Shown here: positions 6,574 to 26,381 of the stretch, in pieces
How positions within the stretch are numbered: position 1 is the first letter of the stretch
Layout of the letters: each line of letters starts with the position of its first letter
Source of the DNA: Candidatus Hadarchaeota archaeon
GTDB taxonomy: Archaea; CAYQAE01; CAYVLA01
NCBI GenBank assembly: GCA_964452145.1
Contig: CAYVLA010000037.1
Span: 1-28,266, forward strand
Reading direction: 5' to 3'
DNA length: 28,266 nt
The notes under the pieces: model-generated
Database searches by the model: none
What the model was told of the DNA's origin: nothing
What the model saw: the letters and a program-made list of their open reading frames with translations, nothing else
Program-made: the position numbers and the translations under genes

Positions 6574-8469
6574 CTAGTCCCTCTTGGATGCAAGGGCGGC
6601 AGCCCTGGTCACCAGATTCTTGATGGCCTTCAAGCTGGGGGGCCTGGAATGCCAGCCGTGCCACATTTCCCAGATCTCCTCAAGGACACTATTGTCGGGG
6701 TCGGGGTAGAGCTCCAGATACTCGTCGAGAGAGCTATCCATGTGGTTGGCGTATCTTCCCGCTGTGTTCAGGCACGCCCTCACGTATGCCCAGGCAGAGT
6801 AGAACAGGGCGTAGCCCAGGGCGTCGGCCAAGTTGGGAGTGTCGTAGGGAAGATACCCCTCGTTGGACGTTCTCCAACGGTCCATTTCGGCCTGGACCGA
6901 GGAGGGCTCGTGTGATGCCAAGTTGTGCCAGTTGCCTAGGTTGATGGCCTCGAGCATTCGGTCATCCGGCATGCGCGCTACATCTGCAAGCCTGAGGAGG
7001 AGGCTCTTTGCCGCCGGCTTATTCCTGCTCCCGGGTTGGGTCAGATCCACTTGCGCAAGGGCAGCCTTCGAGGGATACAGTTCGTTGTCCACGAGGCCTT
7101 GACGTGCGGCCTCCCTGAGGGTCATCATGAAGGTATCCATGTTCAGGATCTCGACCTCACTGGGCAAGGACTTGAGGTTCTCGACCAGATGATCCAGCAC
7201 CCCACGCGCAATCTGGACAAACGCGAAGATGAACAGGGGCCTCTCCCTGAGCGAAGTGGCCATGTTGGCGACTCTTCGGGCGCAGTCCTCTCCAACGTTA
7301 AGGACCAGAGATGAATGGACTTTCGGGGTCCCTTTGGGGTAACTTGTCGCGTAGACCGATCCCCCCAGCCCGCAGACCAGGCCGACCGGCTTGAGGATGC
7401 GTTTCTCGCGGTACACTGCCTGCGGGTTCTCAACCTCCCGCCACCAGAAATTTGTGTCCCAGTTGACCATATTGGCCACGATCTGACCGCTCAGATCCAT
7501 GTAGTGCTTTGAGTAGTGAAGATACCAGTCGTCATGGAGGAAGCTGTATGTATATCCAGCGCCCGAGGACGGGCAGACGAAGTAGTCCCGCTCCGTGGCG
7601 GTTTCGTAGTAGTACTCCAGCATACCGGGGGCGATGTCGTAGAGCAGAGGCAGTAGGCCCCAGTTGAAGGGGAGGCTTCCGCGCCCGCTGCTGAGCCAGT
7701 TGTTGCTCTGCAGGTTGTTCATGGCCCATATGGCGTCGCCGTCTGTCATGTAGAGGGTGAGGTAGATCTTCTTCTCGATTCCGTCAACCGGCTTAGGGGG
7801 CCTCTGCACGTATTTGGCTCTTACTGGTGGGATGCCCCCGTGGACGGTCAGATTTGGGGCATGGGCACTGCACAGAACGAAGAAGCCCTTCTTGGCCGCC
7901 CGGGCGACGTATTCTTTCTCTTGATCCCTGGCGCAGTGCCAGCCCATGAGAACCCCGGGGGATTCCAGATCCTCCAAGATCTGGTCGAAGAGCAGGTTCT
8001 CCTCCCTGTCGCGCCGTGCTGCGGAGAGATGGATGACCAAGGATCTGTTCGCGACCAGGTAGTCAATGATTCCTGTGCTGTTCTGAATCCAGTTCTTCCT
8101 CTTCCCCACACAAAGAGACCCTAGGATCCGCTTGTTGCACTTTGGCAGCAGTTCTTCCCTTGCCCATGAGTACGCCGAGATCCTGTCATCGAACTTGCCT
8201 TCAAGGTCCCTCCTCTGCTTCAGGCCGCAGGACTCAAGTTCTGAGGCAAGGTCGCCCGCAGCGGGTATCAGGTCTTCCAGGCCGGCTATGGTTACGGCGA
8301 GGTTTGCGGTGTCGGGGACCGACGTATCGAAGATGACGGTGCCCCGGGCAGCGTGTCCGTGGAGCCTGAGAAGATCCATCGGATCGCTGATGCGCTCGTT
8401 CGGAACTCCGAACTTCGCCCTGTAATACTCGAGCCAATGCTCGTCCCAGGGGCCCGTAATCTGGTACAT
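6574..8469 (-). CDS. GxGYxYP-family-like putative glycoside hydrolase
   Basis: Carries a GAGYTYSF motif (GxGYxY[S]) within CPSSGAGYTYSFLHDDWY. It is a large soluble protein with no signal peptide. The listed ORF extends to 8745, but those 92 N-terminal codons are R/P-rich, non-protein-like and overlap the next gene. The start was therefore placed at the internal ATG (MYQITGPWDEHW). Confidence 0.45.
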   Translation of the reverse strand: MYQITGPWDEHWLEYYRAKFGVPNERISDPMDLLRLHGHAARGTVIFDTSVPDTANLAVTIAGLEDLIPAAGDLASELESCGLKQRRDLEGKFDDRISAYSWAREELLPKCNKRILGSLCVGKRKNWIQNSTGIIDYLVANRSLVIHLSAARRDREENLLFDQILEDLESPGVLMGWHCARDQEKEYVARAAKKGFFVLCSAHAPNLTVHGGIPPVRAKYVQRPPKPVDGIEKKIYLTLYMTDGDAIWAMNNLQSNNWLSSGRGSLPFNWGLLPLLYDIAPGMLEYYYETATERDYFVCPSSGAGYTYSFLHDDWYLHYSKHYMDLSGQIVANMVNWDTNFWWREVENPQAVYREKRILKPVGLVCGLGGSVYATSYPKGTPKVHSSLVLNVGEDCARRVANMATSLRERPLFIFAFVQIARGVLDHLVENLKSLPSEVEILNMDTFMMTLREAARQGLVDNELYPSKAALAQVDLTQPGSRNKPAAKSLLLRLADVARMPDDRMLEAINLGNWHNLASHEPSSVQAEMDRWRTSNEGYLPYDTPNLADALGYALFYSAWAYVRACLNTAGRYANHMDSSLDEYLELYPDPDNSVLEEIWEMWHGWHSRPPSLKAIKNLVTRAAALASKRD

Positions 8470-8644
8470 CCGGGGCTCGGTCCGGTTGGTGAGTCCCTGG
8501 AGCGCGCCCAGAGCAAGCCTCTTCTCCCAGCTGAGGCCAGCCGGGCAGAAGACCTTCAGGTTCCTGGGTCTCGGGAAGGCGGGGAATATCCTTGGAAACG
8601 GCACGGAGATCCGGGCAACGCCGCCGGGGAGGTTGTTAACTGTT

Positions 8645-9166
8645 TCATGGCGTCGGAGGCCTCTGCCGGAGATCCTTGACGGCCTGCTCGAGGTCGTGCA
8701 CTCTGGAGGCCAGTTCCTCGGCATGTGCCGCAAGGTTCTCGGCAATCCTCGTCGCGCTCAGCGAGCTCTCCCCGATCGCCAGCAGCTTCTCGTTCAGTTC
8801 GCGCAGCTGCTTGGTATCCAGCTTGGGGTGGGGATTCCCCTCAAGCCTATGGGTCTCATTCAAGACAGAGGCTATCCCCGCAAAAGCCTTCGAGAGATCC
8901 GCGCCCAAGTGGCTAGAGTCGGCCTTCAGGCCCTTCAGCGTGTCCTTCATATCGCTGACGGAGCGGGATATCAAGCCCCGCCGCCCCTCAAGGGTCGCAA
9001 AGTCGAGCAGATCCCCCAGCCTGCTGGTCTCGGTCTTCGCGGCGGAAACCCTTCTCAAGACGAGGATGGACACCGCGACTGCAAGACCAGCCAAGACCGA
9101 TGATATCAACGCAACTGCGAAAACTGCGCCCTCGTTCATCTCGCGCGGTGGAGCGTGAAGCAGCAT
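8645..9166 (-). CDS. Membrane-anchored coiled-coil protein (hypothetical)
   Basis: N-terminal TM helix AVFAVALISSVLAGLAVAVSILVL, followed by heptad-like Leu/Glu/Lys-rich sequence. 6-nt gap to the upstream surface-protein gene. Confidence 0.5.
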   Translation of the reverse strand: MLLHAPPREMNEGAVFAVALISSVLAGLAVAVSILVLRRVSAAKTETSRLGDLLDFATLEGRRGLISRSVSDMKDTLKGLKADSSHLGADLSKAFAGIASVLNETHRLEGNPHPKLDTKQLRELNEKLLAIGESSLSATRIAENLAAHAEELASRVHDLEQAVKDLRQRPPTP

Positions 9167-9172
9167 TAAAAT

Positions 9173-11758
9173 CTATCTGACCGATCCTCGTCGCGACACC
9201 GCCAGTTGTGCTGCAAGGAAGATCAGCATCGCGGGGCCCGGGATCGCCTCCTCGGGAATCGCAAGGGCGATGTCATCTAGGTACACCGTGCCGGAACCGA
9301 GGAGGGAGATCCTCAGGGATTCTAGGCGCGAACCGAAGGTCCACCCCAGATCTGCCAGAGGAATGCGCAGACTGGTCCACACACCGGGAGCGAGACCCCC
9401 TAGTGCCTTCACCGAGACGGACCTGGTGGCTCCGGGACCGGTCTTCGTGATCACCATATCCGTCACGGTCGCGTTCCCCGGGTTCACAGATACGAGAAGA
9501 TCGTCGAAGCCCCAGAGGGTGAATGCCCATGGATCGGGAGCCTTTAGCTGGACGATGCAGTATCTCTCGAAGGATATCCTCTGGCACCTGCCTTGGTTGA
9601 CCATATCCGTCGAATACGGATCCACTGTGGCCTGCAGACTCTCCACAGTCCAGCCTTCCTCGAGCTGGTCTCGATAGATGACCAAGTCATGGCGGGGTGG
9701 ATCAAGGTCCGGCACCCCTTCGAGAACGTACAGATCCGTTCCCCTGGAGAAGTAGATCCTGCCGTCCAGGCCCAAGGTCATGTCCGACCCCCCCGCAGAC
9801 AGCTCCTCGAAGCCGACGCTTTCCCCAGGGTAGCAGAGGATCTTCATCCTGAAGACGGCTCTGGAGCTTATGCCGTAGATGAAGCCGTCCGGCGCGGCCC
9901 TCATCCGGATTATGCTGCCAACTGGTGAGGCCTGCTTGTGAATGATGGTGCCCTCCATCGGATCGTAGACGAAGAGCGTCGTCCCGGCGCAGCCGTAGAT
10001 TCTGCCGTCAGGCGCCGTGACCAGGCTCTGTATCCGGTCAACCCTTGGGGCGGGTATCATGTCCATGACGACCTTCCCCTGCCTGATGTCCCATGCGAAG
10101 AAGTGGGCCTCGGTCTCCACGGCCGGAATTCCGCCCCCGGCTTCGGTGCTTGAGCCTCCGTAGATGACCCCTCCGTCCAAGCTCAGCGTCAGGGAGACAA
10201 CGCTCTGGTTTGGAATGATGTGTCTGTGAACCTGAAAACCATCCGTTGTGGGGTCGTATATCGACAGGGCCCCTCCCAGCTTGCCGTAGGTCGGGATGCT
10301 CCCTATGTAGATCCTTCCATCGGCCCCAGCGACCAGCCCTGGTGGTCTGTACTGCTCGTCCCCGACGGGTCCGATCTTGCGCGGATTGGAGTCGGCGGTA
10401 GTCCCGGGGTTCCATGCCTTGGATGGGTCATAGACGCTCAGAACGGAGTGGGTATACGAGGCCATGTACAGCTTGTCGCCATGGGACGCGAAGCTGTAGA
10501 ACTCACCGCTTGCACCCGGAATGGGAACGCCGAGGTCGGTCAACTCCTCCTTTGAGGGATCGTATCTGAATAGATGAAGGAGGTTGTATACTCCGCCATA
10601 GACACAGCCATCCGGGCCAGTGCCCAAGCTGAAGATGTTCATTCCATCCCCGTCCCGGCCGATGTCGACCTGGCCGAGGTAGGCGGATTCTCCGACGTTG
10701 TACGCCCAGCAGGACCGGGAGTCTATTCCGTAAGCAATGCCCGTCTCCTCGTCATACCGGCCGTATGCGGGCACGTCGTAGGGCTCCAGGCGCCGGGCTG
10801 TCTTGTTGTACTTCATTAGGCCCCCTGGCAACCCCGAGATCAGGACAGGACCGCCCTGAGCCTGTCGCAGGATGTATGCCCCGCCGCCGCTGGGGTTACT
10901 CACCTCCATGAGGAGTTCGTACGTATCGGCATCGAAGATCAGCACGATCGTGTCGAAAAGGAGGTAGGCGTAGACGACGTTGTCCTCCGACTCAACCGTG
11001 TAGGCGAATGAGTTGTCCTTGTACCGATCCGGTAGGATGCTTTTGTTCGTCTCGGTCTCGGGGTCATAAACCACCAGGTCTGCTCTGGACCCTATGCCGC
11101 AGAAGATCTTCCCGTTGTCCGCAACTGCCAGATCCCTGCAGTACTGCTCAGTCGGATGCATCCGGCCGAGGTCCTGTATCCTGTCCGTTGAAGGATCGAA
11201 CACGACGACCTTTGCGTTGGGATAGGTGGCACCATAGATACGTCCATCAGGACCTGTTTGCAGCGTCCAAACAAAGGATTCCCCCGCTGCCGATCCGTGG
11301 TCCACCACCTCGCCCACGACTGGGTCGAAGCTGAAGATTCTGCCCTCCATTATCGTGCCTATGTAGATCCTCCCGTCATGGCCCTGACACAGACCATATG
11401 CTCCCTGCGATCGTGCTAGGGCGAAGTACTCGGCACCTCCTCTGGCATAGTCGTAGCGGATCAGCCTGGCCCACCCGGCATCGGTGTAGGTTCCCGCATA
11501 GAGCACCGGCCTGCCGGTCTGGCCGTCCCTAACGAGCAGACTGTCCCAGATCGTCATGGACCTGACCGGTGTCCCCAGCTTCTTAGCAGTTGGCTGCGCC
11601 GTGACCAGTGAGACGCAGCCCAGAAGTAGAATCCCGATGACCAGCCCCACGGATGCACCGTGCTCCGATGGACATACGATGATCAGATCCGTCACCAAGG
11701 CCGGTTTCAATCGAGAAAGCCGTGATATCTCCCCATCCAGTAGGGCAGGAGGAAGCAT
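9173..11758 (-). CDS. Large secreted/cell-surface protein with multiple YVTN-type beta-propeller repeats and a PGF-CTERM-like C-terminal anchor
   Basis: At least 8 repeats of the pattern DGRIY[IG]G...(V/L)xVYDP. An N-terminal hydrophobic h-region (VGLVIGILLLGCVSLVTA) and a C-terminal tail (IPGPAMLIFLAAQLAVSRRGSVR) resemble an archaeosortase sorting signal. Start is uncertain. ATG 11758 overlaps the upstream gene by 51 nt. TTG/GTG at 11698/11695 or ATG 11557 are alternatives. Confidence 0.6.
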   Translation of the reverse strand: MLPPALLDGEISRLSRLKPALVTDLIIVCPSEHGASVGLVIGILLLGCVSLVTAQPTAKKLGTPVRSMTIWDSLLVRDGQTGRPVLYAGTYTDAGWARLIRYDYARGGAEYFALARSQGAYGLCQGHDGRIYIGTIMEGRIFSFDPVVGEVVDHGSAAGESFVWTLQTGPDGRIYGATYPNAKVVVFDPSTDRIQDLGRMHPTEQYCRDLAVADNGKIFCGIGSRADLVVYDPETETNKSILPDRYKDNSFAYTVESEDNVVYAYLLFDTIVLIFDADTYELLMEVSNPSGGGAYILRQAQGGPVLISGLPGGLMKYNKTARRLEPYDVPAYGRYDEETGIAYGIDSRSCWAYNVGESAYLGQVDIGRDGDGMNIFSLGTGPDGCVYGGVYNLLHLFRYDPSKEELTDLGVPIPGASGEFYSFASHGDKLYMASYTHSVLSVYDPSKAWNPGTTADSNPRKIGPVGDEQYRPPGLVAGADGRIYIGSIPTYGKLGGALSIYDPTTDGFQVHRHIIPNQSVVSLTLSLDGGVIYGGSSTEAGGGIPAVETEAHFFAWDIRQGKVVMDMIPAPRVDRIQSLVTAPDGRIYGCAGTTLFVYDPMEGTIIHKQASPVGSIIRMRAAPDGFIYGISSRAVFRMKILCYPGESVGFEELSAGGSDMTLGLDGRIYFSRGTDLYVLEGVPDLDPPRHDLVIYRDQLEEGWTVESLQATVDPYSTDMVNQGRCQRISFERYCIVQLKAPDPWAFTLWGFDDLLVSVNPGNATVTDMVITKTGPGATRSVSVKALGGLAPGVWTSLRIPLADLGWTFGSRLESLRISLLGSGTVYLDDIALAIPEEAIPGPAMLIFLAAQLAVSRRGSVR

Positions 11759-13800
11759 GTGCCTTCTAGGGCCGATCGGCCCTCGGATCCGCCGTCCAGG
11801 ATGTGGAGATTGCCTGCCCACTCGCCCACCGGCCTCTCGTCGGCCGGAAGGGGCTCCGTTGCCGAGTTGGGTCGCTGGGCGTCCAGGGTCACATCCGATC
11901 TGTGGCTGTTCCTGACCGTCCAGCTGATCAGATCGAGCGGGTAATCCCCCAACGTGTCTGCCGCAGCCTCGATATCGTGAGGGGTTCCCATCACGGCTGA
12001 TGTGATGATGTTCCATAGCGAGTTCCGCTGCCCCCTGATCTGGTGCCAGGTTCTCTCAAGGCTCAGCAGGTAGATCTGGCGAAGGGCCGGATCGTCCTCG
12101 TATCGAAGGAGCGGGTAGTAAGCCAGATAGGCAAGCCTGTCGTCGTGCCAGACTTGGTGTCCCAGAACGGTCTGTCTCTGCTTGATGGTGTTGATGGCAT
12201 AGTGGTGCTTGGTGGCTAGCTGACGGTATCTGTCCAGATAGGTCTCATCACCGGTCAGGTGATTGGCCGACCTCAGATAAGACAGAATCTCCAGGGAGTT
12301 GAGGCCCCTCTGCATGCGCCATCGGTCGTCGTGGTTCAGTCTCTTTGGGGACCAGACGCCCCAGGTGGTTGGCTCTCCATCCAGGTCTACCAGGAAATAA
12401 TCGTGGGTGATGATGTGGTCGGTGAGCCTCTTGGCATATTCTTCCAGCAGCTGTCTCTCCCGCTTCCCGGCCACCAGATCATAGTAGATCGTCATGGCGA
12501 AGTAGTGCCCATCGATCTCGTCCGAACTTGTATCGCCCTTCCATTCCCACTCACCGTCCGGAGTCGGATGCCATTCGGGATGACCATCTCCGAACCCGGC
12601 TTCTCCCCTCCCTCTGATGGCTCTGGCCGGGAAGCCCGGTATCCCCGTGACCTGCTCAAGTCTCATTAGGGCATCCAGGGACTCGCGAGCGAAGGCCTTG
12701 GCTTCCGCATCCTGTGTCACGGAGTATCTGAAGGCTTCTGCCGCGATGTACAGGCTCGTCCAGAGGCCGTCGTTGTCGGAGATTCTAACCTGGCCTGACG
12801 AGATCTCACCCGGGGCGCTGAGCACGCGCCCCGTCACAAAACCGATTCGGGTGTGATACTTCCTGACGGTTGCCTCATACTGGGAGGCCTTCTCCTCCAA
12901 GGTCATCTGCACGGATTTCAAGTGCGATATGCCCCCGCGAGTGGCTACGAAGGCCTCCCCGTCACCTAGGGGGAGAATATCCGTGACTTGGTCGCTCGGA
13001 AGCCATCTCCTCGAGGCAAAGTACTTCCACCGGCCCTCCTTAAGCAAAATAACTCCCGAGTTGGTCCCGAACCAGTGGTCGCCCCACGGGGTGACCTTGG
13101 TTAGGCGCACATCCTCCTGGGGAAGACCGTCCTCGCCCCTCAGAGAGCACCAACCATCCCCGCCTGCGTAGATGGATATGCCCCTGTCTGTTCCAACCCA
13201 GATATGCCCTGCCTCGTCGGGCACCGCGCAACGGGTATCGTTGCTCAGCATGCCCTCCTCCCTGGCTCTGACCACGAACCAGTATGGCCGTTTGCCCTGA
13301 AGGAAGAACAGCCCACGGCTGGTGGCCGCGACGGCCCGGGACCCTTCCTCTCCCAGACATCTGAAGTCCCGATACTCCATTCCTCGGGCCTCGGTTCTTC
13401 TGGCATGCGTCCAAGACGAGCCATCGAACCTCCAGAGTCCGTCCGGCGCACATACCCACAGTGCCCCCGAGGAGTCAATATCAGCTTTGAGGCCGGCTTC
13501 GGGTCCCTCGGATACCGACCATGATGTCCCATCGTAACAGAGAAGCGCTCCGTCCGACGCGGCAAAGACGCGGTTTCCATATTGGATGATCAGATCAACC
13601 GATCCCTGGGGCCATCCGTCAGAGCTGGCATGCTTCCACCCGCCTTCTTGCTTGATGGAGATGCCGCGCTCGGTGCCCGCCCAGATGGCATCCCCTACCC
13701 GGGATAGCACGTTGACGCAATTCGATGGAAGACCGGATGACGAATCATGGAACTTCCTCGTCCACTGCCGATACCACCTTCGGCCGTCTGTCTGCGGCAT
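11707..13800 (-). CDS. Reg_prop (two-component-regulator-type) beta-propeller repeat protein with a C-terminal (alpha/alpha)-toroid-like putative carbohydrate-active domain
   Basis: N-terminal repeats WAGTERGISIKQEGGW, WVGTDRGISIYAGGDGW and WFGTNSGVILLKEGRW. C-terminal half is rich in Trp/Tyr/acidic motifs typical of glycan-binding toroid folds (DNDGLWTSLYIAAEAF, WEWKGDTSSDEIDGHYF). ATG at 13800 with a TTAATAG box about 25 nt upstream. Confidence 0.5.
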   Translation of the reverse strand: MPQTDGRRWYRQWTRKFHDSSSGLPSNCVNVLSRVGDAIWAGTERGISIKQEGGWKHASSDGWPQGSVDLIIQYGNRVFAASDGALLCYDGTSWSVSEGPEAGLKADIDSSGALWVCAPDGLWRFDGSSWTHARRTEARGMEYRDFRCLGEEGSRAVAATSRGLFFLQGKRPYWFVVRAREEGMLSNDTRCAVPDEAGHIWVGTDRGISIYAGGDGWCSLRGEDGLPQEDVRLTKVTPWGDHWFGTNSGVILLKEGRWKYFASRRWLPSDQVTDILPLGDGEAFVATRGGISHLKSVQMTLEEKASQYEATVRKYHTRIGFVTGRVLSAPGEISSGQVRISDNDGLWTSLYIAAEAFRYSVTQDAEAKAFARESLDALMRLEQVTGIPGFPARAIRGRGEAGFGDGHPEWHPTPDGEWEWKGDTSSDEIDGHYFAMTIYYDLVAGKRERQLLEEYAKRLTDHIITHDYFLVDLDGEPTTWGVWSPKRLNHDDRWRMQRGLNSLEILSYLRSANHLTGDETYLDRYRQLATKHHYAINTIKQRQTVLGHQVWHDDRLAYLAYYPLLRYEDDPALRQIYLLSLERTWHQIRGQRNSLWNIITSAVMGTPHDIEAAADTLGDYPLDLISWTVRNSHRSDVTLDAQRPNSATEPLPADERPVGEWAGNLHILDGGSEGRSALEGTCFLLPYWMGRYHGFLD

Positions 13801-14280
13801 ACTTCATCCCAGCATGACCGAACTATTAACTATTGGGCTCTTACCAGTTGAGCCCGATCCTCAATTCAGGCGAAGAGGAAACGATCTGGCCCCTCAGTTC
13901 TCACGGTCCTCGCGAGCAGGGAGGCAACCATGGAATCTAGATCGGGCTGGAGGCGTGGGAGGTGAGAGCAGGTGACCCGGACTTCGCACTGCCCGCACGC
14001 TGCTCTGCGCTCCTCGGGGCAACTCGAACAGGTCAACAGATGCCTGCTCCCTACCCTTCGATGCCGGCCGCAAAAGGTGGACGGAGAATGGTTGTATCGA
14101 TATCGCTCAAGCCCACCTGATGAATCAGGCCCGAAGTGAGAGCGGGATGGTGCATGCAACCATGGATGGCAGACCAGCAACGAAAGGTTTCCATGGCATT
14201 TGACACAGGGTCCGAGCAAGCCCAGATTGAGGTTTCAATATCCTAATAAGCCATGCGTGCCGTCCAATCATGAGGATAAC

Positions 14281-15512: not shown

Positions 15513-15653
15513 CCGATCAACCTTTCCCCAGCGTCAGCGTTGCAGTGCTCCCGCGCCTTGGGGTCGTTGACCGCATCGGTGATCCTTAGTCCTTGGTCCT
15601 TAGCATATATTTTTCAGCGGAATCCAAGGCGCTTCCCAAGGAGGTCAGGGAGC

Positions 15654-17254: not shown

Positions 17255-17268
17255 CGAGGTGATATGAC

Positions 17269-18084: not shown

Positions 18085-18432
18085 GGAATCGCTCGGCAAA
18101 CGAGGTGGCAGGGCCACTGCCAAGCAGGTCGTCCGCCAGCTAAGGGATATGTGCTAAACCCGGCAGACTCCCCCCATATCCCGTCGAATGAGGCCTGCCT
18201 CTAGGACCCTGCGTTAAAGCAGGAATGGATCCGAACCGTGAGGTGACCGCGGCCGGATGATAGGGATTCCGAGAATCGGATACATCGTGCTTCATTGCGC
18301 CTGCGACAAGGTTACCATTTCAACGGGCGAAGCACGAATTCCGTGGCTAAAGACCTGAACCTTGGCCCAGCCCCGGCCCCGGCCCGGGAACAATTATTAG
18401 GTCACGAGTCCTCTGTCGACACAGGTGATGGC

Positions 18433-19494
18433 GTGGTCACTCTGTATGGTCAGAACTTCACCCGCAACCAGCTCCTGCGACACGTAGGCGACGTTTCCCA
18501 AGTTGGAGGGATAGAGTTGCTGGAACTCGGAGATGGCAGCGAACGGGGGAGCCGAGCGGCGGTGTTCAGAACCGGATCGGGTTTCGAGTTCACGGTCCTA
18601 CCGGACAGGGGGCTCGACATCGCCCACGCCTCCTTCAGAGGGATTCCCATGGGATGGATCTCCCCGACCGGAAGGACCGCGCCGGCCTTCTATGACAGCG
18701 GCGGTTTGGAGTGGTTGAGAGGATTCTACGGGGGACTGCTTGTGACATGCGGGCTGACCTACGCAGGTGCTCCTTGTGTGGACGAAGGGGCGGAATTGGG
18801 TCTCCACGGCAGAGCGTCCAACATACCCGCCAAGAGGCTCTGTTTGGAGGAGCACTGGTCGGGGGATGAATATGACATGGTTCTGTCAGGAGAGGTCTCT
18901 GAGGCAAAGGTCTTCCAGCCCACGATCACCATGAGAAGGGAGATAGCTTCACGGCTTGGCGAATCGAGACTATGGATCAAGGACACCGTTGAGAACGTTG
19001 GCTTTGCCCGTTCCCCCCACATGATCGTCTACCACATAAACATCGGCTTCCCCATCGTCGAGGATGGCTCTAGGTTGATCTGCCACTCTAAGTCTGTGAA
19101 GCCCCGTGATGAGGATGCGAGGGTGGGCCTCTCCGACTGGGCCGTGTTCTCGGGGCCCGTCAAGGATTACCGGGAACAGGTCTTCTACCACGATATGGCC
19201 CCAGATGCCTCGGGGATGGTGAATGTGGGGATCGTTAACGATGCGAGGAAGATCGGTGTCAAGGTCAGCTACAGGAAGGATCAGCTGCCCCGCTTCATTG
19301 AGTGGAAAATGATGGGGGAGGGCACCTATGTCGTCGGATTGGAACCGGCGAACTGCTGGGTGGAGGGCCGTGAGAAGGAGAGGAAGCGGGGAACTCTCCA
19401 GTTCTTGGAACCCGAGGAGAATAGGTCGTACGAGCTGGAGATTGCCTTCCTTGAGGGCAAAGACGCAGCGGAATTCGCTTTCCCCGCGGCCTAG
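18433..19494 (+). CDS. DUF4432/aldose-1-epimerase-like (galactose-mutarotase-fold) protein
   Basis: About 354 aa, beta-rich. Motifs GFEFTVLPDRGLDIAHASF and YHINIGFPI. Start placed at GTG 18433 behind AGGTGA. The listed frame extends to TTG 18295 with no Shine-Dalgarno, so that start remains possible. Confidence 0.45.
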   Translation: MVTLYGQNFTRNQLLRHVGDVSQVGGIELLELGDGSERGSRAAVFRTGSGFEFTVLPDRGLDIAHASFRGIPMGWISPTGRTAPAFYDSGGLEWLRGFYGGLLVTCGLTYAGAPCVDEGAELGLHGRASNIPAKRLCLEEHWSGDEYDMVLSGEVSEAKVFQPTITMRREIASRLGESRLWIKDTVENVGFARSPHMIVYHINIGFPIVEDGSRLICHSKSVKPRDEDARVGLSDWAVFSGPVKDYREQVFYHDMAPDASGMVNVGIVNDARKIGVKVSYRKDQLPRFIEWKMMGEGTYVVGLEPANCWVEGREKERKRGTLQFLEPEENRSYELEIAFLEGKDAAEFAFPAA

Positions 19495-20183
19495 CCGCTG
19501 CGAGAGGAGGCCATATTGAAGAAGTTCTGCAGAATGGTCCTTCCATCCGGATGCCCATCGTCGAAGCATTCGGGGTGAAACTGCACCCCATAGAGAGCCT
19601 TCTCTCGGTGCCCTACGGCTTGGACTCTGCAGTTCTCCGAAGACGCCAGTAGATTAAGGGCCCTAGGAAGGCGCTTAACCTCGCAGTAGTGGGACTCGTG
19701 GACGGTGATCTCACCTCGCATCGCGAGGAACAGGGGGCTCTTTCGAAGGATTCTGACCCGGGTATATCCTCGCTCCTTGTAGTAGCCAGGCATGTAGGAG
19801 GGATGGGGATCCGTCTCTCCTTCCCCGAGCTTCCTAATGGGTCCGACCGCGCCACCGAAGGCCTTGCATATGAGCTGAAGGCCCCCGCAAATGCCCAAGA
19901 TGGGAATCCGGCAGGCCCTGATGGCCCGCAGCGGCTCCTCGAGCTGGGACGAGGCATAGCAGCTCCAGTCGGTCCTGTTGCCGCTTATGATCATGGCTAG
20001 AAGTGGCAGATCCTCGATGTGGCTGTCGAACCAGATGAAGCTTTGGCACAGGCACGCCGCTCCCGACAGCTCCCGGAACTTGCGGCAGTCTCTCCTCACG
20101 CTTCGTAGGTGCCTTGCTCTCTTGGCGCGGCTTAGCAGGGCACGGGGATGCTCCATGTCGAGGTACAGTACGAATCTATCCAT
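19491..20183 (-). CDS. Class-I glutamine amidotransferase-like protein
   Basis: Nucleophile-elbow motif GICGGLQL and GVQFHPE motif. AGGTG Shine-Dalgarno 6 nt upstream. Starts 3 nt after the cupin TAA stop. Confidence 0.7.
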   Translation of the reverse strand: MDRFVLYLDMEHPRALLSRAKRARHLRSVRRDCRKFRELSGAACLCQSFIWFDSHIEDLPLLAMIISGNRTDWSCYASSQLEEPLRAIRACRIPILGICGGLQLICKAFGGAVGPIRKLGEGETDPHPSYMPGYYKERGYTRVRILRKSPLFLAMRGEITVHESHYCEVKRLPRALNLLASSENCRVQAVGHREKALYGVQFHPECFDDGHPDGRTILQNFFNMASSRSG

Positions 20184-20186: not shown

Positions 20187-20570
20187 TTACACCTGGTCCG
20201 AGCAGTCTGTCGGCTCAGGGCTCGGGCCGGGGTTCTTGAGGAAGAAGACGGCAACAACTAGCTTGTCGCCCGAGTCCGGCACGCCGAAATGCTCCACTCC
20301 TCTGGGAACGCGTACGGTATCCCACTTCCTGACAGCTATCCATTTGCCCCCCAGAACGATGTTCCCAGTGCCCTCAAGTACCAGGAATACCTCCTCCATA
20401 TCTTCATGGTGGTGAGGACGGGAATCATTGAAACTCACGACGTGCAGGACTCCCGGCTGCCACTCGTCTCTGAAACCACAGATGCCCGTATCGGGGAACC
20501 CGCTGAATCTAGACACCTGAGCCGTCGCAGGCCGATCATTGACATCCATGACCCTAATGGCTTCGGGCAT
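20187..20570 (-). CDS. Cupin-domain protein
   Basis: 127 aa with cupin beta-barrel motifs (HHHEDMEEVFLVLEGTG...VPRGVEHF). Co-transcribed with the GATase1 gene. Confidence 0.6.
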   Translation of the reverse strand: MPEAIRVMDVNDRPATAQVSRFSGFPDTGICGFRDEWQPGVLHVVSFNDSRPHHHEDMEEVFLVLEGTGNIVLGGKWIAVRKWDTVRVPRGVEHFGVPDSGDKLVVAVFFLKNPGPSPEPTDCSDQV

Positions 20571-20684
20571 GGGCAGATCTCTCTGCCCGGGTTAATAGCG
20601 TTTTCCGACTCGACTTGGATCTGTGATTGGGTACGATTCTGGGATAACACAGACCCGACTTAGATCCGTCGTCCACGCTCACAA

Positions 20685-21947
20685 TCAACCGTCTTCCGAG
20701 TCAACCATCGAATCCAGCAATAGGTTCTTCATCTCGGAACAGACTTCCGGGCGATCGTTCGCGAGGTTGGTCGCTTCCGACGGATCGGCCGCAAGATCGA
20801 ATAGCATCTCGCGGCCGAGCCCCGCCGTCGCGAACACCTCCCCCGGTGAGTAATCACCCGACCACGGGGTGTTTCCAATGGACCTATGATAGATGTACTT
20901 CCATCTGCATGTGCGGACCGCCTTGATCGCCGTGCCTCTGTATTCGCAGAACTCCATGAATACAGCATCATGAATCTTTGACTTGGAGCCTCGCAGAATG
21001 TCTGCTAGGGTGGCTCCATGGCAGGAACGAGGAACCGGCAGGTTGAGAAGATCGAGAAGGGTGGGCATCACATCACAGATCTGCGCCAGACAGTAGAGCT
21101 TGATGTTACCCTTTAGAACGCCGGGCCATGAGAACATCACCGCGGTGCGCATCAGGGGGTCGAATAGGAAAGGAGGCTTCTTACAGAAGAAGTGTTCCCC
21201 GAGGAACACGCCGTGGTCGCCGACCAAGATGGTGATCGTGTTATCCGAAAGGCCCAGCTTGGCTAGAGCATCGCTCAGCCTTCCGATGTTCAGGTCCACG
21301 AAAGCGACCTCACCGTCGTAGAGCGCCATGAGATGGCGCCTTTCCCGCTCCGTCATCTCTGGCTCATACATTCTGGGACAACTAACGTCCCTCCCCGAAT
21401 AGCCCGGGTCAAAGACGGTGTCGAAGGGCTTGGGAGGACGCCAGGGCTCATGGGTGGACTCATAGTCAACCCACAAGAACCATGGGTCCTGGCCGCGCTC
21501 GGCCATCCATTCGATCGCGGCGTCCGTGATACGGGAGGTGATGTGCTCGGCCTGGCCGCCGGGTAGGTGGTTGCTCAATCCTGGACCTGGGCTGGCAGGC
21601 CATACCTGATGGAACCCCCTCTCCAAGCCCCTATCCATTTTGGGCGTGGCTCCGGCCACAAAGCCGGCCTGCGACAGTGACTCGGCCAAGGTGTGTTCGT
21701 CTGGATTCAGAGGCGCATCATTCACCCTCAGACCGTGTGAATGGGGGAAGCGCCCCGTCATTATGCTGGCACGCGAGGGCGCGCTCGATGGCATGGGGCA
21801 GAAGGCCCTCTCCAACATGACCCCGGATTGCGCGATGCGGTCAATGTTCGGGGTCTGGGCTTCCGGGTTGCCCCCGCAGCCCAATCGATCTGGGCGCAAG
21901 GAGTCGACCATTATCATCAGCACGTTTGGGATGTTCAACTCTGTCAT
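20685..21947 (-). CDS. Sulfatase (arylsulfatase family), Ser-type active site
   Basis: N-terminal PNVLMIMVDSLRPDRLG. Active-site signature SAPSRASIMTGR, i.e. S-x-P-x-R-xxxx-TG with Ser, not Cys, at the formylglycine position. Start placed at the ATG giving MTELNIPNVL, as in cytoplasmic sulfatases. The listed frame runs to 22235. Confidence 0.8.
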   Translation of the reverse strand: MTELNIPNVLMIMVDSLRPDRLGCGGNPEAQTPNIDRIAQSGVMLERAFCPMPSSAPSRASIMTGRFPHSHGLRVNDAPLNPDEHTLAESLSQAGFVAGATPKMDRGLERGFHQVWPASPGPGLSNHLPGGQAEHITSRITDAAIEWMAERGQDPWFLWVDYESTHEPWRPPKPFDTVFDPGYSGRDVSCPRMYEPEMTERERRHLMALYDGEVAFVDLNIGRLSDALAKLGLSDNTITILVGDHGVFLGEHFFCKKPPFLFDPLMRTAVMFSWPGVLKGNIKLYCLAQICDVMPTLLDLLNLPVPRSCHGATLADILRGSKSKIHDAVFMEFCEYRGTAIKAVRTCRWKYIYHRSIGNTPWSGDYSPGEVFATAGLGREMLFDLAADPSEATNLANDRPEVCSEMKNLLLDSMVDSEDG

Positions 21948-22262
21948 CCAACCACTTCCCCACGTAACGGCCAATGAATAGATTTCGTGCTCATCGCCAT
22001 TGGTCCGAGACTCCGCTATGACGGGTCTCATTCCCGTCCTTTGGGTAGCCCGGATGGGAGAAGATTCCAGCTGTGATCCGATGCACAAGACCGGGGTTGC
22101 CAGATCTGGAAAGCCACCCGATGACATGGTGCGAGCGCGTTCCTGAAACAAGAGGAGGCATATCATCTCGACGGATATACTGGCAGGCAAGAGAACCGGC
22201 CTTGAGAAACATTTTCGAGGCCGAAACCAGGGCATCTCTCCACAGTGAATCTGAACATCTGC

Positions 22263-23852
22263 ATGGGCTCGCTGTTGGGCTTTCTTCTTTGCGCGGCGCT
22301 GGGAGGCATGGCATCTGGAGTTGAAGTGGGCATATCTGTGAATTCCAGACAGGACTACGGAGACCTAATCTTCCCGCCAGGAGAGCATGTCATCGACTTT
22401 TTGATATCCGGGCAAGGTCAGGAGACGCCATCTTCGATTCTCGAGGTCTCATTGACTCGTCTGCATCATGCCCCTGAGCATCGATTCCAGCACCCCCTTC
22501 CCGAGCTAGACCCCGGTCGGTCCTTCCATGTGTCCATTCCTCTGCGTTTGTTGGATCCCGGGCTCTACTCGGTGGAGTGGAAGATGACCGGATCGAATCT
22601 GGCGGTCGGCGGAAGGGGACCGGACCTCAGAGTGAGCCCCACCACGAATGCCTGGCAGAAATGGCGTCTGGGCGAATGGCCTGGCAATCGAAGCCGCCTG
22701 TTGCTAGCGTTCTACTACCCCTGGTACGGCACCCCGTCGGGTCCAAGCGGGGGCTGGGTCCACTGGAATCCCGCGAGTGGGTACGATTCGACCCATGTAC
22801 CGATCATAGGATTCTACGATTCAAGGTCTGACGATGTGATACGCTACCATGTGCGAGTGGCTAAAAGCGTGGGATTGACCGGCTTCATCTCATCATGGTG
22901 GGGTCCGGGCAACTACATAGATGACGGTTTCTCCAAGCTGCTTGAGATCGGATCGCACGCGGGGTTCAACTGCACTGTCTACCTTGAGAACGCGAACACA
23001 GCGGATGATCTCTACCACCAGCTTCGCTACATCCTGACCCGCTACGGTGCTCAGCCGGGCTTCTTGAGATGGAATGGCAAGCCCGTCGTATTCATATACA
23101 GCAGGGTGATCAATTCGCTCGACCTGCAGATCTTCGCGGAGGTCTTCTCAAGGCTCGAGGCGGAGGGCCTCCCGGCATTCTATCTGGCGGATAGGCTCGA
23201 CGAGAGCTACCTCACGGTCTTCGATGGGATACACAGCTACAGCCCGCTTTCCGTGTTGGGCAAGTACCCCTACCTAGCCCGCAGGTGCAGGGAATTGGGG
23301 AAGGTCTTTGCCGGCACAATAGCACCCGGCTACGACGACACGATCATCAGGCATCCAGGGCTGGTCATCGATAGGGGGAACGGCTCCTACTACCAGGATG
23401 GGTGGGAGATGTTGATGGTCTCACAGCCCGACTGGGTCCTCATCACCTCTTGGAATGAGTGGCATGAGGGAAGCGAGATCGAGCCGAGCTTGGAATTGGG
23501 CGACTTCTACCTCAACCTGACGAGCACGTACTACCGGCTCTTCGAGGCCGGCCAGCTGACGGACAGGCTGGCAGGCCGAATTGACGAGGTCTCCACGCTT
23601 TTCCAGACGTCAAGGGATCTGATCCACGCGGCCGAGTCAAAGGGCATGGATGTTAGATTGATGAGGCGTGACTACTCGATAGCCGAAAATGCGTGGGAAC
23701 GATACGACTATGACCTAGCAAAGATGTACCTGCAGAGAATCGTTAACCGAGGGGAGGAGATCGGGGAGGTTGCAGAACACTTTCTACTCATTCTCTGCCC
23801 GTCGGCGCTGTGTCTGTGGCGATTGCGATCAGATCACGCCGATCCTGCGTAG
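22263..23852 (+). CDS. Secreted glycoside hydrolase family 99-like protein with an N-terminal Ig-like region
   Basis: Signal peptide MGSLLGFLLCAALGGMASG. Motifs FYYPWYG...WVHWN and ITSWNEWHEGSEIEP match GH99 hallmarks as recalled from memory. GTG 22245 is an alternative start. Confidence 0.5.
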   Translation: MGSLLGFLLCAALGGMASGVEVGISVNSRQDYGDLIFPPGEHVIDFLISGQGQETPSSILEVSLTRLHHAPEHRFQHPLPELDPGRSFHVSIPLRLLDPGLYSVEWKMTGSNLAVGGRGPDLRVSPTTNAWQKWRLGEWPGNRSRLLLAFYYPWYGTPSGPSGGWVHWNPASGYDSTHVPIIGFYDSRSDDVIRYHVRVAKSVGLTGFISSWWGPGNYIDDGFSKLLEIGSHAGFNCTVYLENANTADDLYHQLRYILTRYGAQPGFLRWNGKPVVFIYSRVINSLDLQIFAEVFSRLEAEGLPAFYLADRLDESYLTVFDGIHSYSPLSVLGKYPYLARRCRELGKVFAGTIAPGYDDTIIRHPGLVIDRGNGSYYQDGWEMLMVSQPDWVLITSWNEWHEGSEIEPSLELGDFYLNLTSTYYRLFEAGQLTDRLAGRIDEVSTLFQTSRDLIHAAESKGMDVRLMRRDYSIAENAWERYDYDLAKMYLQRIVNRGEEIGEVAEHFLLILCPSALCLWRLRSDHADPA

Positions 23853-24590
23853 ATACTCCATGGAGTCGACGATTCGCTGGTGGGTCTGTTCGAGGGTGAG
23901 GTCCTCCCCCTGTATGCCCTCCATCTCCAAGGTGAACGGGCCGTTGAATCCCAATTTGTTGAGGATGCGGAACACGCCGGGATAGTCCACGATGCCTTGG
24001 CCGAGGGTGGGGAAGTACCAGGTTCTGGGCTTGCCGTTGGTGTCCTTGAGATGAACGCTCGCGACGTATCGTGCCACCTTCTTCAACTCGGTGATGGCGT
24101 CGACGCCTTCGTTGTAGTAGTAGATGTTTGCGGTGTCAAAGTTGACGCGGACGTTAGGGTGATCCGTGGCCTTCACGGTTTTCAGCATCTGGGCGGCGTT
24201 CTGGCACAGATCGGGATGGGTCTCCATCGAGATGACCGTGCCAGTCCTGCCCGCCTCATCCCCCAAACGGGCAAGAATCCCGTAGGGCTGATTCCCTGGC
24301 AGCCCACCCGATTTGGTGCTGCAGAAGATCACCTTGACATCCATCTTCCTAGCAGTCTCCATCGTTTGGATCAGTTCCTTGATCTCCTCCTCTTTTGCGA
24401 GGTCGCATCCCGTCGCTAGCGACGTCGCCCTCAACTCGTGCTGCTCCAGGTCAGCCTGAACGTCCCTGATCTTCTGAGGATCCGGGGGTGAGATCTCCAC
24501 GTTGTGGATCCCTGCCTTGGGCAGGTAGTTGTAAGCGAGATCGGCATACTTCCTGTACGATCCCGGTCTGCAGGCGATTACGTTCTTCAT
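23829..24590 (-). CDS. Sugar phosphate isomerase/epimerase (xylose-isomerase-like TIM barrel), second copy
   Basis: Start at the ATG giving MKNVIACRPGSYRKY. Motifs SVHLKD and FTLEMEG. The listed upstream extension (MRSCTEQDLRVASSRRLRV) is not protein-like. Confidence 0.75.
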   Translation of the reverse strand: MKNVIACRPGSYRKYADLAYNYLPKAGIHNVEISPPDPQKIRDVQADLEQHELRATSLATGCDLAKEEEIKELIQTMETARKMDVKVIFCSTKSGGLPGNQPYGILARLGDEAGRTGTVISMETHPDLCQNAAQMLKTVKATDHPNVRVNFDTANIYYYNEGVDAITELKKVARYVASVHLKDTNGKPRTWYFPTLGQGIVDYPGVFRILNKLGFNGPFTLEMEGIQGEDLTLEQTHQRIVDSMEYLRRIGVI

Positions 24591-25331
24591 ATTACGACGC
24601 CCGAACTGGATTTCGTCCGAATAAGCAAAAAACCAAACGCGGAGCCTTCTCGAGGATGCCACTCTTAAGTCTTGCTCAGTGCAACTGCGCAACTCATCAG
24701 CTATGGATGCGACGCGAGCCGGCCGGGGAAGTATGCGGGCACCGGGCAGTCAGGTCGTTACCCGTCCGTCATGCGATCTGGCCGATCGGCCCCGGCGAAG
24801 TCGGGACCACTTGTCGCGGCGGTTGACCCGAAGGCGATCCGGGTACCTCAACATATCGACGTCCCAGAAGCTGGTGTTCAGGCTAGAATGTCTCACGATT
24901 GCGGAACAGGCCCGATCATTGCAGGGCATCATGTCGGCGCTGCTGATCGTCCTGCTTGTATTGCGCATGCGAAGCATCCACAGATCTCCCAGGTTCGCCA
25001 GGCGGACTCGGCTGGAATCTGACATGCGTTGCTGCTCAGCCAACTCGTGTTGCCGTTCCATGTTCTTGGACCCGGGATGCTGGCCTTTGCCCCGAGGCCG
25101 GTTCCGGCTAGGTCAGCCTGTATTCTCCTCACATGAGGCTCGGCGATTCCCTGAGACCAGCCATTTCAAGTGGTTGATGTCTGTTTCTGGGATTCGTCTG
25201 CCTTCGGCCAGCCCCGACCGGTCGAGCAGATCGAGCATCGAGCGCGAACCAATCAACCATGTCTCAAAGTCCATCGGGCGGGAACACTATTAAGCGGGCT
25301 TTAGACCCTTGATTTTCAGAGAGGATCATAA

Positions 25332-26381
25332 GTGGCCGAGGAGAAGATCGGATTCGGAATCGTCGGCTGCGGCGTCATAGGTCCCTGGCACAGGGAGGCC
25401 ATACAGAGGTCGGGTGGTGCCAAGCTGGTGGCCTGCTGCGACGTAGATGAAGCGAGGGGCAGGAAGTTCGCAGAGGAGAGCGGATCCATTGCCTTCTACA
25501 GAGACTACCACGACTTGGTGAGGGATCCCCGCGTAGAGGCCGTGTCGGTGTGCACCCCGTCAGGCTTACACGGAGCGGTCACGGTAGCCGCCGCGGAGGC
25601 CGGCAGACATGTGCTGTGCGAGAAGCCAATCGAGATCACGAAGAAGAAGATCGATCAGATGATCCGCGCCTGCCACAGGAATGATGTCAAACTTGGATGC
25701 GTCTTTCAGAGGAGGACACAGATGGCGTCCGGGAGGGCCAAGGAGGCCATCGACGGTGGGCTTCTGGGCAGGATGGTTCTAGGGGACATATACCTGAAGT
25801 ACTACCGATCGCAGGCCTACTATCGAAGCGCGGGCTGGAGGGGCACCTGGGAGCTGGACGGCGGGGGCGCACTGATGAATCAGGGCGTGCATGGGATAGA
25901 CCTGGGTCTGTGGATAATGGGCGACGTAAGGTCGGTGTATGGGCGGGCCGACCACCTAGCAAGGGACATCGAAGTCGAGGACACCGCGGTGGCGCTTCTG
26001 GAATACAGGAATGGCGCTTGGGGAGTGTTGGAGGCGACGACGTCCGTGAATCCGGGCGAGTCCACGAAGCTGTCCTTACACGGACAGAGAGGCAGCATAG
26101 TGATAGAGGAGGAAAGAATCGCCAAGTGGGCCATTGCCGAGGGTGAAGATGAGCTGGCAAAACCTCAGAACGTCGTCCTTGAGGGAGAGAAAGACGGAGC
26201 GGCCTCCGATCCAACAGCGGTGGGCGTAGCGGGCCACGTCTTTCTCGTAAATGACTTGGTATCGGCCATAAGGGAAGACAGAGAACCCTTCATAACAGGA
26301 GAAAGCGCAAGGAAATCCGTTGAACTCGTCCTAGCCATCTATGAATCCTCTAGGACTGGCAGACGCGTGTCGATTCGCTAG
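25332..26381 (+). CDS. Gfo/Idh/MocA-family oxidoreductase, second copy
   Basis: Rossmann start IGFGIVGCGVIGPWH. Motifs EKPIEITKKKIDQM and GGGALMNQGVHGIDLGLWIMGDV. GTG start with GAGGA 6 nt upstream. Paralogue of 15654-16646. Confidence 0.85.
   Translation: MAEEKIGFGIVGCGVIGPWHREAIQRSGGAKLVACCDVDEARGRKFAEESGSIAFYRDYHDLVRDPRVEAVSVCTPSGLHGAVTVAAAEAGRHVLCEKPIEITKKKIDQMIRACHRNDVKLGCVFQRRTQMASGRAKEAIDGGLLGRMVLGDIYLKYYRSQAYYRSAGWRGTWELDGGGALMNQGVHGIDLGLWIMGDVRSVYGRADHLARDIEVEDTAVALLEYRNGAWGVLEATTSVNPGESTKLSLHGQRGSIVIEEERIAKWAIAEGEDELAKPQNVVLEGEKDGAASDPTAVGVAGHVFLVNDLVSAIREDREPFITGESARKSVELVLAIYESSRTGRRVSIR

Follow-up and report, generated by a model that had tools for sequence, protein, structure and literature searches.

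The window analysed here is a complete contig of 28,266 bp from an NCBI genome of Candidatus Hadarchaeota archaeon, and it carries, between 4.8 and 26.4 kb, a glycan-related gene neighbourhood that includes a glycoside hydrolase of family GH99, a sulfatase, a GxGYxYP protein, two propeller proteins, two Gfo/Idh/MocA dehydrogenases (Gfo1 and Gfo2) and two xylose-isomerase-like TIM barrels (TIM1 and TIM2). Gene order, derived from Pfam scans of long open-reading frames (ORFs), and comparison with related contigs showed that the region consists of two separable modules and is neither one operon nor a classical polysaccharide-utilisation locus (PUL); the direction of transcription flips five times over this distance. 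Module A (~4.8-19.5 kb) comprises a minus-strand operon for a propeller-(alpha/alpha)6 protein, a giant propeller, a small membrane protein, the GxGYxYP protein, TIM1 and a metallophosphoesterase, together with divergent small genes, Gfo1 and a DUF4432 gene, and module B (~19.5-26.4 kb) comprises GH99, a divergent sulfatase-cupin-GATase group, TIM2 and Gfo2. With moderate confidence, we read this native, lineage-conserved pair of modules as serving the scavenging of mannose-containing, possibly sulfated, glycans. A sequence-only reading had described 6574-26381 as a PUL-like cluster with a Ser-type sulfatase, a secreted GH99-like hydrolase, a GxGYxYP-like putative glycosidase, a Reg_prop propeller/(alpha/alpha)-type protein, a giant beta-propeller surface protein, two xylose-isomerase-like TIM barrels, two Gfo/Idh/MocA dehydrogenases and a DUF4432 protein. 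Profile and structure comparisons bore out this inventory, including its sulfatase and carbohydrate-active enzyme (CAZyme) assignments, with the named domains above the curated Pfam cut-offs apart from the weakly matched giant propeller, except that TIM1 lies just outside the interval. Several ORFs in the underlying list extend beyond their actual genes, among them those of the GxGYxYP protein, the sulfatase and DUF4432, and each of the eight window proteins for which this was checked forms a cluster of its own at 90% identity.

The first gene of the minus-strand operon (11707-13800) encodes a Reg_prop protein, recognised by Pfam and by an AlphaFold2 (AF2) model with a confidence (pLDDT) of 91.6, in which a 7-bladed propeller (residues 1-295) is joined to an (alpha/alpha)6 barrel. 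The propeller is a homologue of the domains with which hybrid two-component systems of Bacteroides sense glycans, and the C-terminal half is the (alpha/alpha)6 barrel, with no kinase, receiver or helix-turn-helix domain. Compared with GH76 this barrel is 10% identical, and epimerases occupy the top Foldseek ranks. The protein belongs to a family of more than 1800 uncharacterised homologues of ~700 aa that are 40-45% identical over their full length, mostly have no signal peptide, share the invariant acidic pairs D342/D344, D427/E428 and D553/D554, and occur in Armatimonadota, Paenibacillus, Poribacteria, Verrucomicrobia and Hadarchaeota. The second gene (9173-11698), starting with TTG at 11698 or GTG at 11695 just past the stop of the upstream gene, encodes the large exported beta-propeller, for which Pfam gave weak Kelch/Reg_prop matches. 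It has a signal peptide (...VTAQP), a C-terminal beta-rich region that no Pfam model matched, and an 'IPEE' motif followed by a membrane anchor and an RR tail, and its orthologues in two related contigs (L086 and L087; related contigs were retrieved through the nearest GH99 and GxGYxYP homologues) are 59-65% identical and have the same ends. It is followed by a small protein (8645-9166) with an N-terminal membrane helix and no Pfam match, orthologues of which (41-60%) stand directly upstream of GxGYxYP in L086, L087 and a third related contig, L089.

The GxGYxYP putative glycoside hydrolase (6574-8604 on the minus strand, ORF to 8745; 676 aa as called) contains four Pfam domains, all above their cut-offs, and matches PDB 3sgg (BT2193) at E 7e-17. 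It shows the N-terminal triple repeat, the C-terminal barrel and the putative triad that mark membership of the family, its Glu and D-G-D aligning to Glu272/Asp331/Asp333 of BT2193 under an assumed chain offset of 21. The called protein has no signal peptide and is predicted to be cytoplasmic; its homologues are 50-68% identical within the Hadarchaeota clade and ~39% identical in bacteria. The family occurs in bacterial PULs and its activity has never been demonstrated (PMC4071793). Downstream lie TIM1 (5654-6439, minus; PF01261, 100 bits), whose orthologues are likewise found downstream of GxGYxYP in L087 and L089, and the metallophosphoesterase (4815-5657, minus; PF12850/PF00149), whose 4-nt overlap with the TIM1 stop makes it the probable final gene of the operon. 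Divergently from the operon, the plus-strand genes are headed by a conserved small protein (14200-14811) with only a weak MTH865-like match, whose orthologues, 32-48% identical, hold the same position in L002, L086, L087 and L089; a small gene without assigned family (15153-15512) separates it from Gfo1. When the divergent region was scanned for sigma-70 promoters and terminators, nothing rose above shuffled sequences, sigma-70 models being inapplicable to archaea.

In module B, the GH99 gene (22245-23852, plus strand) scored 110.7 bits against PF16317 with a cut-off of 33, and its product matched the GH99 chains in the PDB with E values from 5e-28 to 6e-17, 4acz and 4acy standing at 5e-28. 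Both catalytic glutamates of the NEWHEG motif are kept, 'SWNEWHEGSEIEP' aligning to 'SFNEWHEGTQIEP' of 4acz, and E405/E408 are invariant in 13 clade members, as is W218-W219. The EWHE catalytic motif of GH99 is named in PMC11025385, where archaeal GH99 genes are already documented. From a signal-like hydrophobic N-terminus the protein passes through a ~140-aa N-domain, the catalytic domain and a helical C-terminal region to an 'EIGE' motif and membrane anchor, and the same layout was seen in 12 homologues of 49-57% identity. From this architecture, GH99 is predicted to be an exported member of the endo-alpha-1,2-mannanase-type family that is held on the cell surface by its C-terminal anchor. 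The C-termini of GH99 (23760-23852) and of the giant propeller (9173-9260), and those of their orthologues, share '[I/V]PE' (or EIGE/VPEP), ~18-20 hydrophobic residues and a basic tail, reminiscent of the PEP- and PGF-CTERM sorting signals for exo- or archaeosortases; none of the NCBIfam sorting-domain models matched either C-terminus. The invariant 'SWWG' of GH99 aligns with 'TWWG' of BtGH99, and its Trp-Trp pair may correspond to position 189 of MANEA. At that position Trp denotes a mannanase and Tyr a glucose-specific mannosidase (PMC11025385), and the match of the Trp-Trp motif to the bacterial enzymes makes GH99 probably of the mannanase type by this rule.

Divergent from GH99, the sulfatase gene (20685-21947, minus strand, ORF open to 22235; PF00884, 128 bits, plus SGSH_C) encodes the motif S-A-P-S-R, and because this aligns to the formylglycine motif S-G-P-S-R of the GlcNAc-6-sulfatase BT4656 (5g2v) the protein is classed as a Ser-type S1 formylglycine sulfatase. 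The aligned DHG metal/active-site motif and the pairing of Sulfatase and SGSH_C domains are further likenesses to S1 enzymes such as BT4656; unlike these, the window enzyme has no signal peptide, and Pfam scans revealed no sulfatase maturase among the window proteins. Its NCBIfam scores fall under all equivalog cut-offs. The likeliest start is MTELNIP (21947), and the orthologue in L002, 55% identical with S-V-P-S-R, begins directly at the domain; the enzyme is predicted on these grounds to be cytoplasmic. The minus-strand group continues with a Cupin_2 protein of 127 aa (20187-20570; PF07883, E 2e-9), which lies between the sulfatase and a class-I GATase/peptidase C26-like gene (19491-20183; PF00117, 75.5 bits) and was absent, like the GATase and the encapsulin operon described below, from the gene list of the sequence-only reading. 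A cupin orthologue, 66% identical, adjoins the GATase in L089, and the GATase is convergent with DUF4432 in the window, L002 and L089.

Both modules contain a dehydrogenase of the Gfo/Idh/MocA type, Gfo1 at 15540-16646 and Gfo2 at 25332-26381 (both plus strand, Gfo2 with three Pfam domains). The best PDB matches of both were 3q2i/3q2k, which we take to be the biosynthetic WlbA UDP-GlcNAcA 3-dehydrogenases, followed by the glucuronide-3-dehydrogenase 8tdi and then by DgpA (7xr9 for Gfo2, DgpA1 9m3d for Gfo1). Orthologues of Gfo2 are 72-78% identical in all related loci, and those of Gfo1 66-72% in L002, L087 and L089. The Rossmann fold of Gfo1 begins at ORF residue 42; a Tat signal ahead of it was considered and rejected, as the RR has no hydrophobic segment behind it and the orthologues are shorter. 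The highest-scoring NCBIfam model for both dehydrogenases was IolG (TIGR04380; 157 and 149 bits, cut-off 355). TIM2 (23829-24590, minus, ORF to 24692; PF01261, 105.6 bits), with the probable start MKNVIAC and predicted to be cytoplasmic, represents a narrow subfamily with 1406 representatives among 1.84 billion proteins, and its orthologues adjoining GH99 are 55-75% identical. E123/D152/H180 are invariant and E222 nearly so, a pattern that we read as the Glu/Asp/His and second Glu metal ligands of the superfamily. The closest solved relative is 3tva, a structure without known function, and the TIM2 profile reaches generic relatives in the PDB (UlaE, AsbF, ketose 3-epimerases, IolE/IolI, sugar epimerases, dehydratases and hydratases) as well as the 2-hydroxy-3-keto-glucal hydratase 8ro4 and the 3-keto-glucoside 4-epimerase 6wn6. 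TIM1 and TIM2 are distant paralogues (hhalign 96.8%, 16% identity); a PDB sequence search with TIM1 gave no match, and the sole NCBIfam match of TIM1 was IolE (TIGR04379, cut-off 290), a model for which scores of 35 and 31 bits were obtained. The DUF4432 protein (18295-19494, plus; PF14486, 365 bits) has a mutarotase fold, matching the 'hypothetical aldose 1-epimerase' 3ty1 at E 2e-39; its orthologues are 68-75% identical, and its real start is probably ~45-50 codons into the ORF. The NCBIfam search returned no match for DUF4432, GH99 or GxGYxYP.

The contig is archaeal and its genes are native to the lineage, because it encodes an intron-containing tRNA-Glu, because its nearest genome is Hadarchaeota and because TFIIB is encoded on the homologous contig L004; the archaeal hallmarks noted in the sequence-only reading were thereby substantiated. 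The tRNA-Glu(UUC) (1948-2056, minus strand; 106 nt by Rfam) is interrupted at the canonical site by a 32-nt intron and has its CCA end encoded, and TATA-like TTTATTTAA stands ~20 nt upstream. ARAGORN in default mode found no tRNA in the window, and this one was recovered by Rfam and by ARAGORN -i, with introns allowed. The closest syntenic genome in the species-representative collection is a Candidatus Hadarchaeota archaeon whose common genes are 51-72% identical, the Hadarchaeota being a phylum of Archaea and the source of the contig an uncultured, heat-loving member. The GC content per kb is even along the whole window (0.56-0.61) and third-position GC (GC3) ranges from 0.64 to 0.79 across all window genes, a uniformity that gives no sign of recent import. 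In a crude neighbour-joining tree, the Hadarchaeota GH99 clade was placed beside bacterial GH99 and apart from other archaeal GH99, so that the GH99 gene alone may have undergone an old inter-domain transfer. Horizontal acquisition of the whole cluster as a bacterial PUL was rejected on the grounds of the uniform composition, of conservation within Hadarchaeota and of the absence of the partner genes around bacterial GH99 genes.

Comparison with the related contigs showed that the neighbourhood is kept within the Hadarchaeota clade, as two modules. L002 (GCA_964549615.1) runs Reg_prop...Gfo1...DUF4432-GATase-sulfatase-GH99-TIM2-Gfo2 through to an M42 peptidase, without the encapsulin operon and with an ABC-2/DrrA-type (exporter-like) pair inserted. 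The order GH99-TIM2-sulfatase-Gfo2 was found in L005 (CAZUNO010000026.1, a Hadarchaeota metagenome-assembled genome), and L004 has GH99, TIM2 and Gfo2 within ~10 kb with other genes interposed. For module A, the order Reg_prop - propeller - membrane protein - GxGYxYP is kept in L086 and L087, the latter with TIM1 a few genes downstream and a divergent Gfo1 beyond the Reg_prop gene. In L089, the membrane protein-GxGYxYP pair is present together with TIM1 and Gfo1, with no Reg_prop or propeller orthologue. The two modules adjoin each other in the window and in L002; on the ERZ27256770 contig 30 kb lie between them, and GCA_964621445.1 carries each on its own contig. Because these genes also occur side by side in four further contigs of the Hadarchaeota clade, their grouping is more than chance. 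The sulfatase of L005 (12528-14072, plus) is a Cys-type enzyme (C-T-P-S-R) without signal peptide that is 23% identical to the Ser-type enzyme of the window, and this non-orthologous replacement looks like an independent recruitment of the same activity.

Loci outside the clade were surveyed in two ways. Among 85 loci around GH99-related genes, TIM2 stands beside GH99 only in those of the Hadarchaeota clade and in none of the 79 others, a few of which carry weak Gfo matches (21-30% identity); the set is therefore no mobile cassette and has been held together in the lineage despite rearrangements. Scanning metagenomes for members of the narrow TIM2 subfamily produced 42 unrelated loci of at least 6 kb, with a Gfo gene in 12 and a directly adjacent, co-directional one in five. 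One of these, L113 (Ga0315289_10000239, 4714-14993), encodes in one direction an SGSH_C-type sulfatase, an unannotated protein of 452 aa, TIM2 (45%) and Gfo2 (52%), and a radical-SAM/SPASM gene ~3.4 kb beyond Gfo2, past a methyltransferase and two ORFs with little or no annotation, and ~7 kb downstream of the sulfatase. Radical-SAM/SPASM enzymes of the anSME type, which can oxidise Ser, mature anaerobic sulfatases; L113 is an independent case of the sulfatase-TIM-Gfo triad, with a candidate sulfatase maturase. Another locus, L127, has a BNR-repeat protein, an unannotated gene, a sulfatase and TIM2 (60% identity). The clade restriction of the GH99-TIM2 pair, the non-orthologous sulfatase of L005 and the recurrence of TIM2-Gfo in metagenome loci argue for functional coupling of the core GH99-TIM2-Gfo2 (with the sulfatase) beyond collinearity.

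The bacterial homologues of the module A proteins stand in contexts that, judged by gene content, are catabolic. A bacterial GxGYxYP homologue has GH106, GH38, an esterase and a sulfatase of the SGSH_C type around it, and the neighbours of the propeller-(alpha/alpha)6 gene in Paenibacillus oceani encode ABC sugar-binding proteins, a Gfo dehydrogenase, GH42, a TIM barrel and several phosphatases; metallophosphoesterase genes also recur beside bacterial propeller-(alpha/alpha)6 homologues (L090, L091). The contexts of a KSB1 GxGYxYP homologue and an Armatimonadota Reg_prop homologue were uninformative. A carbohydrate role for the locus is plausible because these bacterial homologues sit in catabolic sugar clusters.

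Taken as a scavenging system, the locus would work from the outside inwards. On the cell surface, GH99 would cut mannose-containing glycans from necromass or exopolymers, possibly with the anchored giant propeller helping as a binding protein, and the fragments would enter through a transporter encoded elsewhere. In the cytoplasm, they would be desulfated and further cleaved by the GxGYxYP and (alpha/alpha)6 proteins, and the sugars would be converted by NAD-dependent oxidation, most like that of C3 sugar dehydrogenases, by isomerase, eliminase or hydratase chemistry of the TIM barrels and by the mutarotase-like protein. Several observations weigh against this scheme. Pfam scans detected no sugar importer, regulator or kinase in the window, and the sole transporter at this locus in a relative is the exporter-like pair of L002. 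The top PDB matches of both Gfo proteins are the 3q2i/3q2k structures, and no Gfo or TIM protein attains any NCBIfam equivalog cut-off. A sulfated substrate is suggested by the sulfatase, yet this enzyme is predicted to be cytoplasmic, and just five of the 42 TIM2-family metagenome loci contain a sulfatase. The five direction reversals and the separation of the modules in two related genomes count in the same direction, and the flanking CoA-binding, ATP-cone and M42 genes are equally syntenic, so that conservation is partly plain collinearity among relatives. The PUL-like character proposed by the sequence-only reading was therefore retained as to gene content and a plausible carbohydrate role and given up as to architecture: no window ORF has SusC (TonB-dependent transporter) or SusD domains, there is no dedicated regulator of the HTCS, SusR or ECF/anti-sigma kind, no transporter or regulator accompanies the CAZymes between 4.8 and 26.4 kb, as CAZyme-cluster definitions ask, and five reversals, an encapsulin operon and a division into two modules complete the difference.

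It is unlikely, in our view, that the genes are neighbours only through the collinearity of close relatives, each enzyme having a separate purpose. The reversals, the unrelated encapsulin operon in mid-region and the scattering of the modules would fit such an account, as would the order of the CoA_binding, ATP-cone/AF1548 and M42 genes, which are unrelated to glycans and equally conserved, and the comparison spans five related contigs only; yet GH99, TIM2 and Gfo2 stay within ~10 kb of each other in each of the four genomes despite differing intervening genes, and the sulfatase at the L005 locus is non-orthologous. The account also sits poorly with the tight spacing or overlap of the minus-strand genes and with the TIM2-Gfo adjacency in five of 42 unrelated loci, one of them having the sulfatase and radical-SAM/SPASM genes.

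That the locus instead builds or remodels the envelope glycans of the organism itself, by S-layer or N-glycan trimming or by sugar-nucleotide modification, we consider quite doubtful. The WlbA-like top match of both dehydrogenases points to such a role, and Gfo1 scores 139 bits with the archaeal UDP-GlcNAc 3-dehydrogenase model, but the cut-off of that model is 450. GH99 also matches the WbsX model, the predicted place of both this enzyme and the giant propeller is the surface of the producing cell, where they would be anchored, and the window has no importer and L002 an exporter-type ABC pair; nevertheless, Pfam scans found no glycosyltransferase, flippase, oligosaccharyltransferase, aminotransferase or acetyltransferase in the window, the sulfatase, GxGYxYP and (alpha/alpha)6 domains are of degradative types, and the bacterial homologues lie in catabolic clusters. 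The Gfo/TIM pairs and the phosphoesterase are very unlikely to represent catabolism of inositol or another cyclitol (phosphate) of the IolG/IolE/IolI type, to which the sequence-only reading had likened them, since that likeness, visible in the IolG and IolE top models, in the reach of the TIM2 profile to IolE and IolI structures, in the metallophosphoesterase closing the operon and in the GxGYxYP-phytase fusions on record (PMC4071793), is one of superfamily only, with scores far under the cut-offs, no IolB, IolC, IolD or IolA-like genes in the window or related loci, and GH99, the sulfatase and GxGYxYP left unexplained.

Returning to the scavenging of mannose-containing glycans, a more specific form of this reading can be put forward only tentatively, and we give it little weight: a system peculiar to this lineage and unlike PULs, directed at sulfated or mannose-rich glycans, in which a surface GH99 and propeller would share the '[I/V]PE + membrane helix + basic tail' sorting signal, a Ser-type sulfatase, GxGYxYP and the propeller-(alpha/alpha)6 protein, representing a new glycosidase family, would act in the cytoplasm, and oxidative processing by Gfo proteins and TIM lyase-hydratases would then take place besides or instead of hydrolysis.

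Among known systems, the nearest for GH99 are the alpha-mannan utilisation loci of Bacteroides, in which a GH99 endo-alpha-1,2-mannanase is combined with GH76, GH92, GH38 and GH125, and for which PMC11025385 cites Cuskin 2015. Shared with these are the secreted GH99 with its EWHE motif and Trp-Trp pair, and a propeller related to the hybrid two-component sensor domain. In contrast, SusC/SusD, GH92, GH38 and GH125 are missing from the window and the organism has no outer membrane, the propeller protein has no kinase or DNA-binding output, and the (alpha/alpha)6 protein, predicted to be cytoplasmic, could not be assigned to GH76. The Gfo, TIM and sulfatase partners set the window apart from the other GH99 loci (n = 79) as well.

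For the dehydrogenases and TIM barrels, the comparison is with 3-keto oxidative pathways, which include the levoglucosan LgdA/B1/B2/C and C-glycoside DgpA/B/C systems. In the Bacteroides BT2156-BT2160 operon, Gfo and IolE-like TIM-barrel proteins degrade disaccharides and glycosides via 3-keto intermediates (PMC8121099). The window resembles these in its Gfo and xylose-isomerase-like TIM pairs, in strong matches to 8tdi and DgpA, and in a TIM2 profile that reaches 8ro4 and 6wn6. It differs in having no DUF1080 hydrolase and in Gfo scores far below the cut-offs of the levoglucosan dehydrogenase model (NF052479; 116 and 109 against 650) and the BT_2158/BT_2159 families (NF058561, 65 and 34 against 750; NF058563, 45 and 33 against 650), and the TIM2 match to DgpC is marginal (E 0.0075). 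At the equivalog level, the genes belong to none of the BT2156-BT2160, levoglucosan or inositol pathways, and the likeness of the dehydrogenases to the 3-keto enzymes is one of subfamily; by analogy, a mode of working similar to the 3-keto pathways may reasonably be supposed. As in the SusC/D-independent loci of Gram-positive bacteria and other archaea, a surface-anchored endo-enzyme and cytoplasmic downstream enzymes are encoded near each other; unlike those loci, the window has no ABC importer or transcription factor, falls into two modules and encodes a cytoplasmic Ser-type sulfatase.

The locus belongs among the CAZyme-rich neighbourhoods of uncultured archaea, with a composition that is lineage-specific. 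Hadarchaeota are described, only in broad terms, as carbohydrate fermenters in PMC10811742, and as carbohydrate fermenters with a few glycosidases in PMC10681998; in the literature searched, no paper linked them with sulfatases. As they are abundant in hot, deep subsurface sediments, the locus offers concrete, clonable candidates for the enzymes behind their diet. It also highlights two families without demonstrated activity, GxGYxYP and the widespread propeller-(alpha/alpha)6 proteins, whose recurrent partners (Gfo, TIM barrel, phosphoesterases and sugar ABC transporters) make both good targets for enzyme discovery. The genome architecture itself is ordinary, that of a native neighbourhood rather than of a transferred bacterial PUL.

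Within module A, the interval 16892-18069 (plus strand) holds what its sequence identifies as a complete family-1 encapsulin system of the iron-storage type, unrelated to the glycan genes. The cargo gene (16892-17254, 120 aa) has Rubrerythrin/EncFtn-like matches and its product ends in ...PTVGNMKE, which resembles the known encapsulin loading peptide; the gene for the HK97-fold shell (17269-18069; PF04454, 236 bits) begins 15 nt downstream. The operon stands between Gfo1 and DUF4432 in the window genome only, and L002 and L089 have at this site a gene of 408-416 aa, of unassigned family, on the opposite strand, a comparison that marks the operon as an insertion into the neighbourhood. Its GC3 is 0.64, and every other reliably framed gene of the window has a higher one.

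At the left end of the window lie two genes that appear unrelated to glycans, one for an FG-GAP/ASPIC-UnbV protein (11-817, plus; Pfam) that at 268 aa is far shorter than typical members of its family, and one for a P1B ATPase of the CopA type that carries two HMA domains at its N-terminus (2126-4645, minus; Pfam). At the right end, the CoA-binding, ATP-cone/AF1548-like and M42 peptidase genes occupy 26419-28233. This block is kept downstream of Gfo2 in L002 and L005, where a third xylose-isomerase-like TIM barrel follows it, and the relatives have between Gfo2 and the CoA_binding gene a spermine-synthase-like gene of ~510 aa that is missing from the window.

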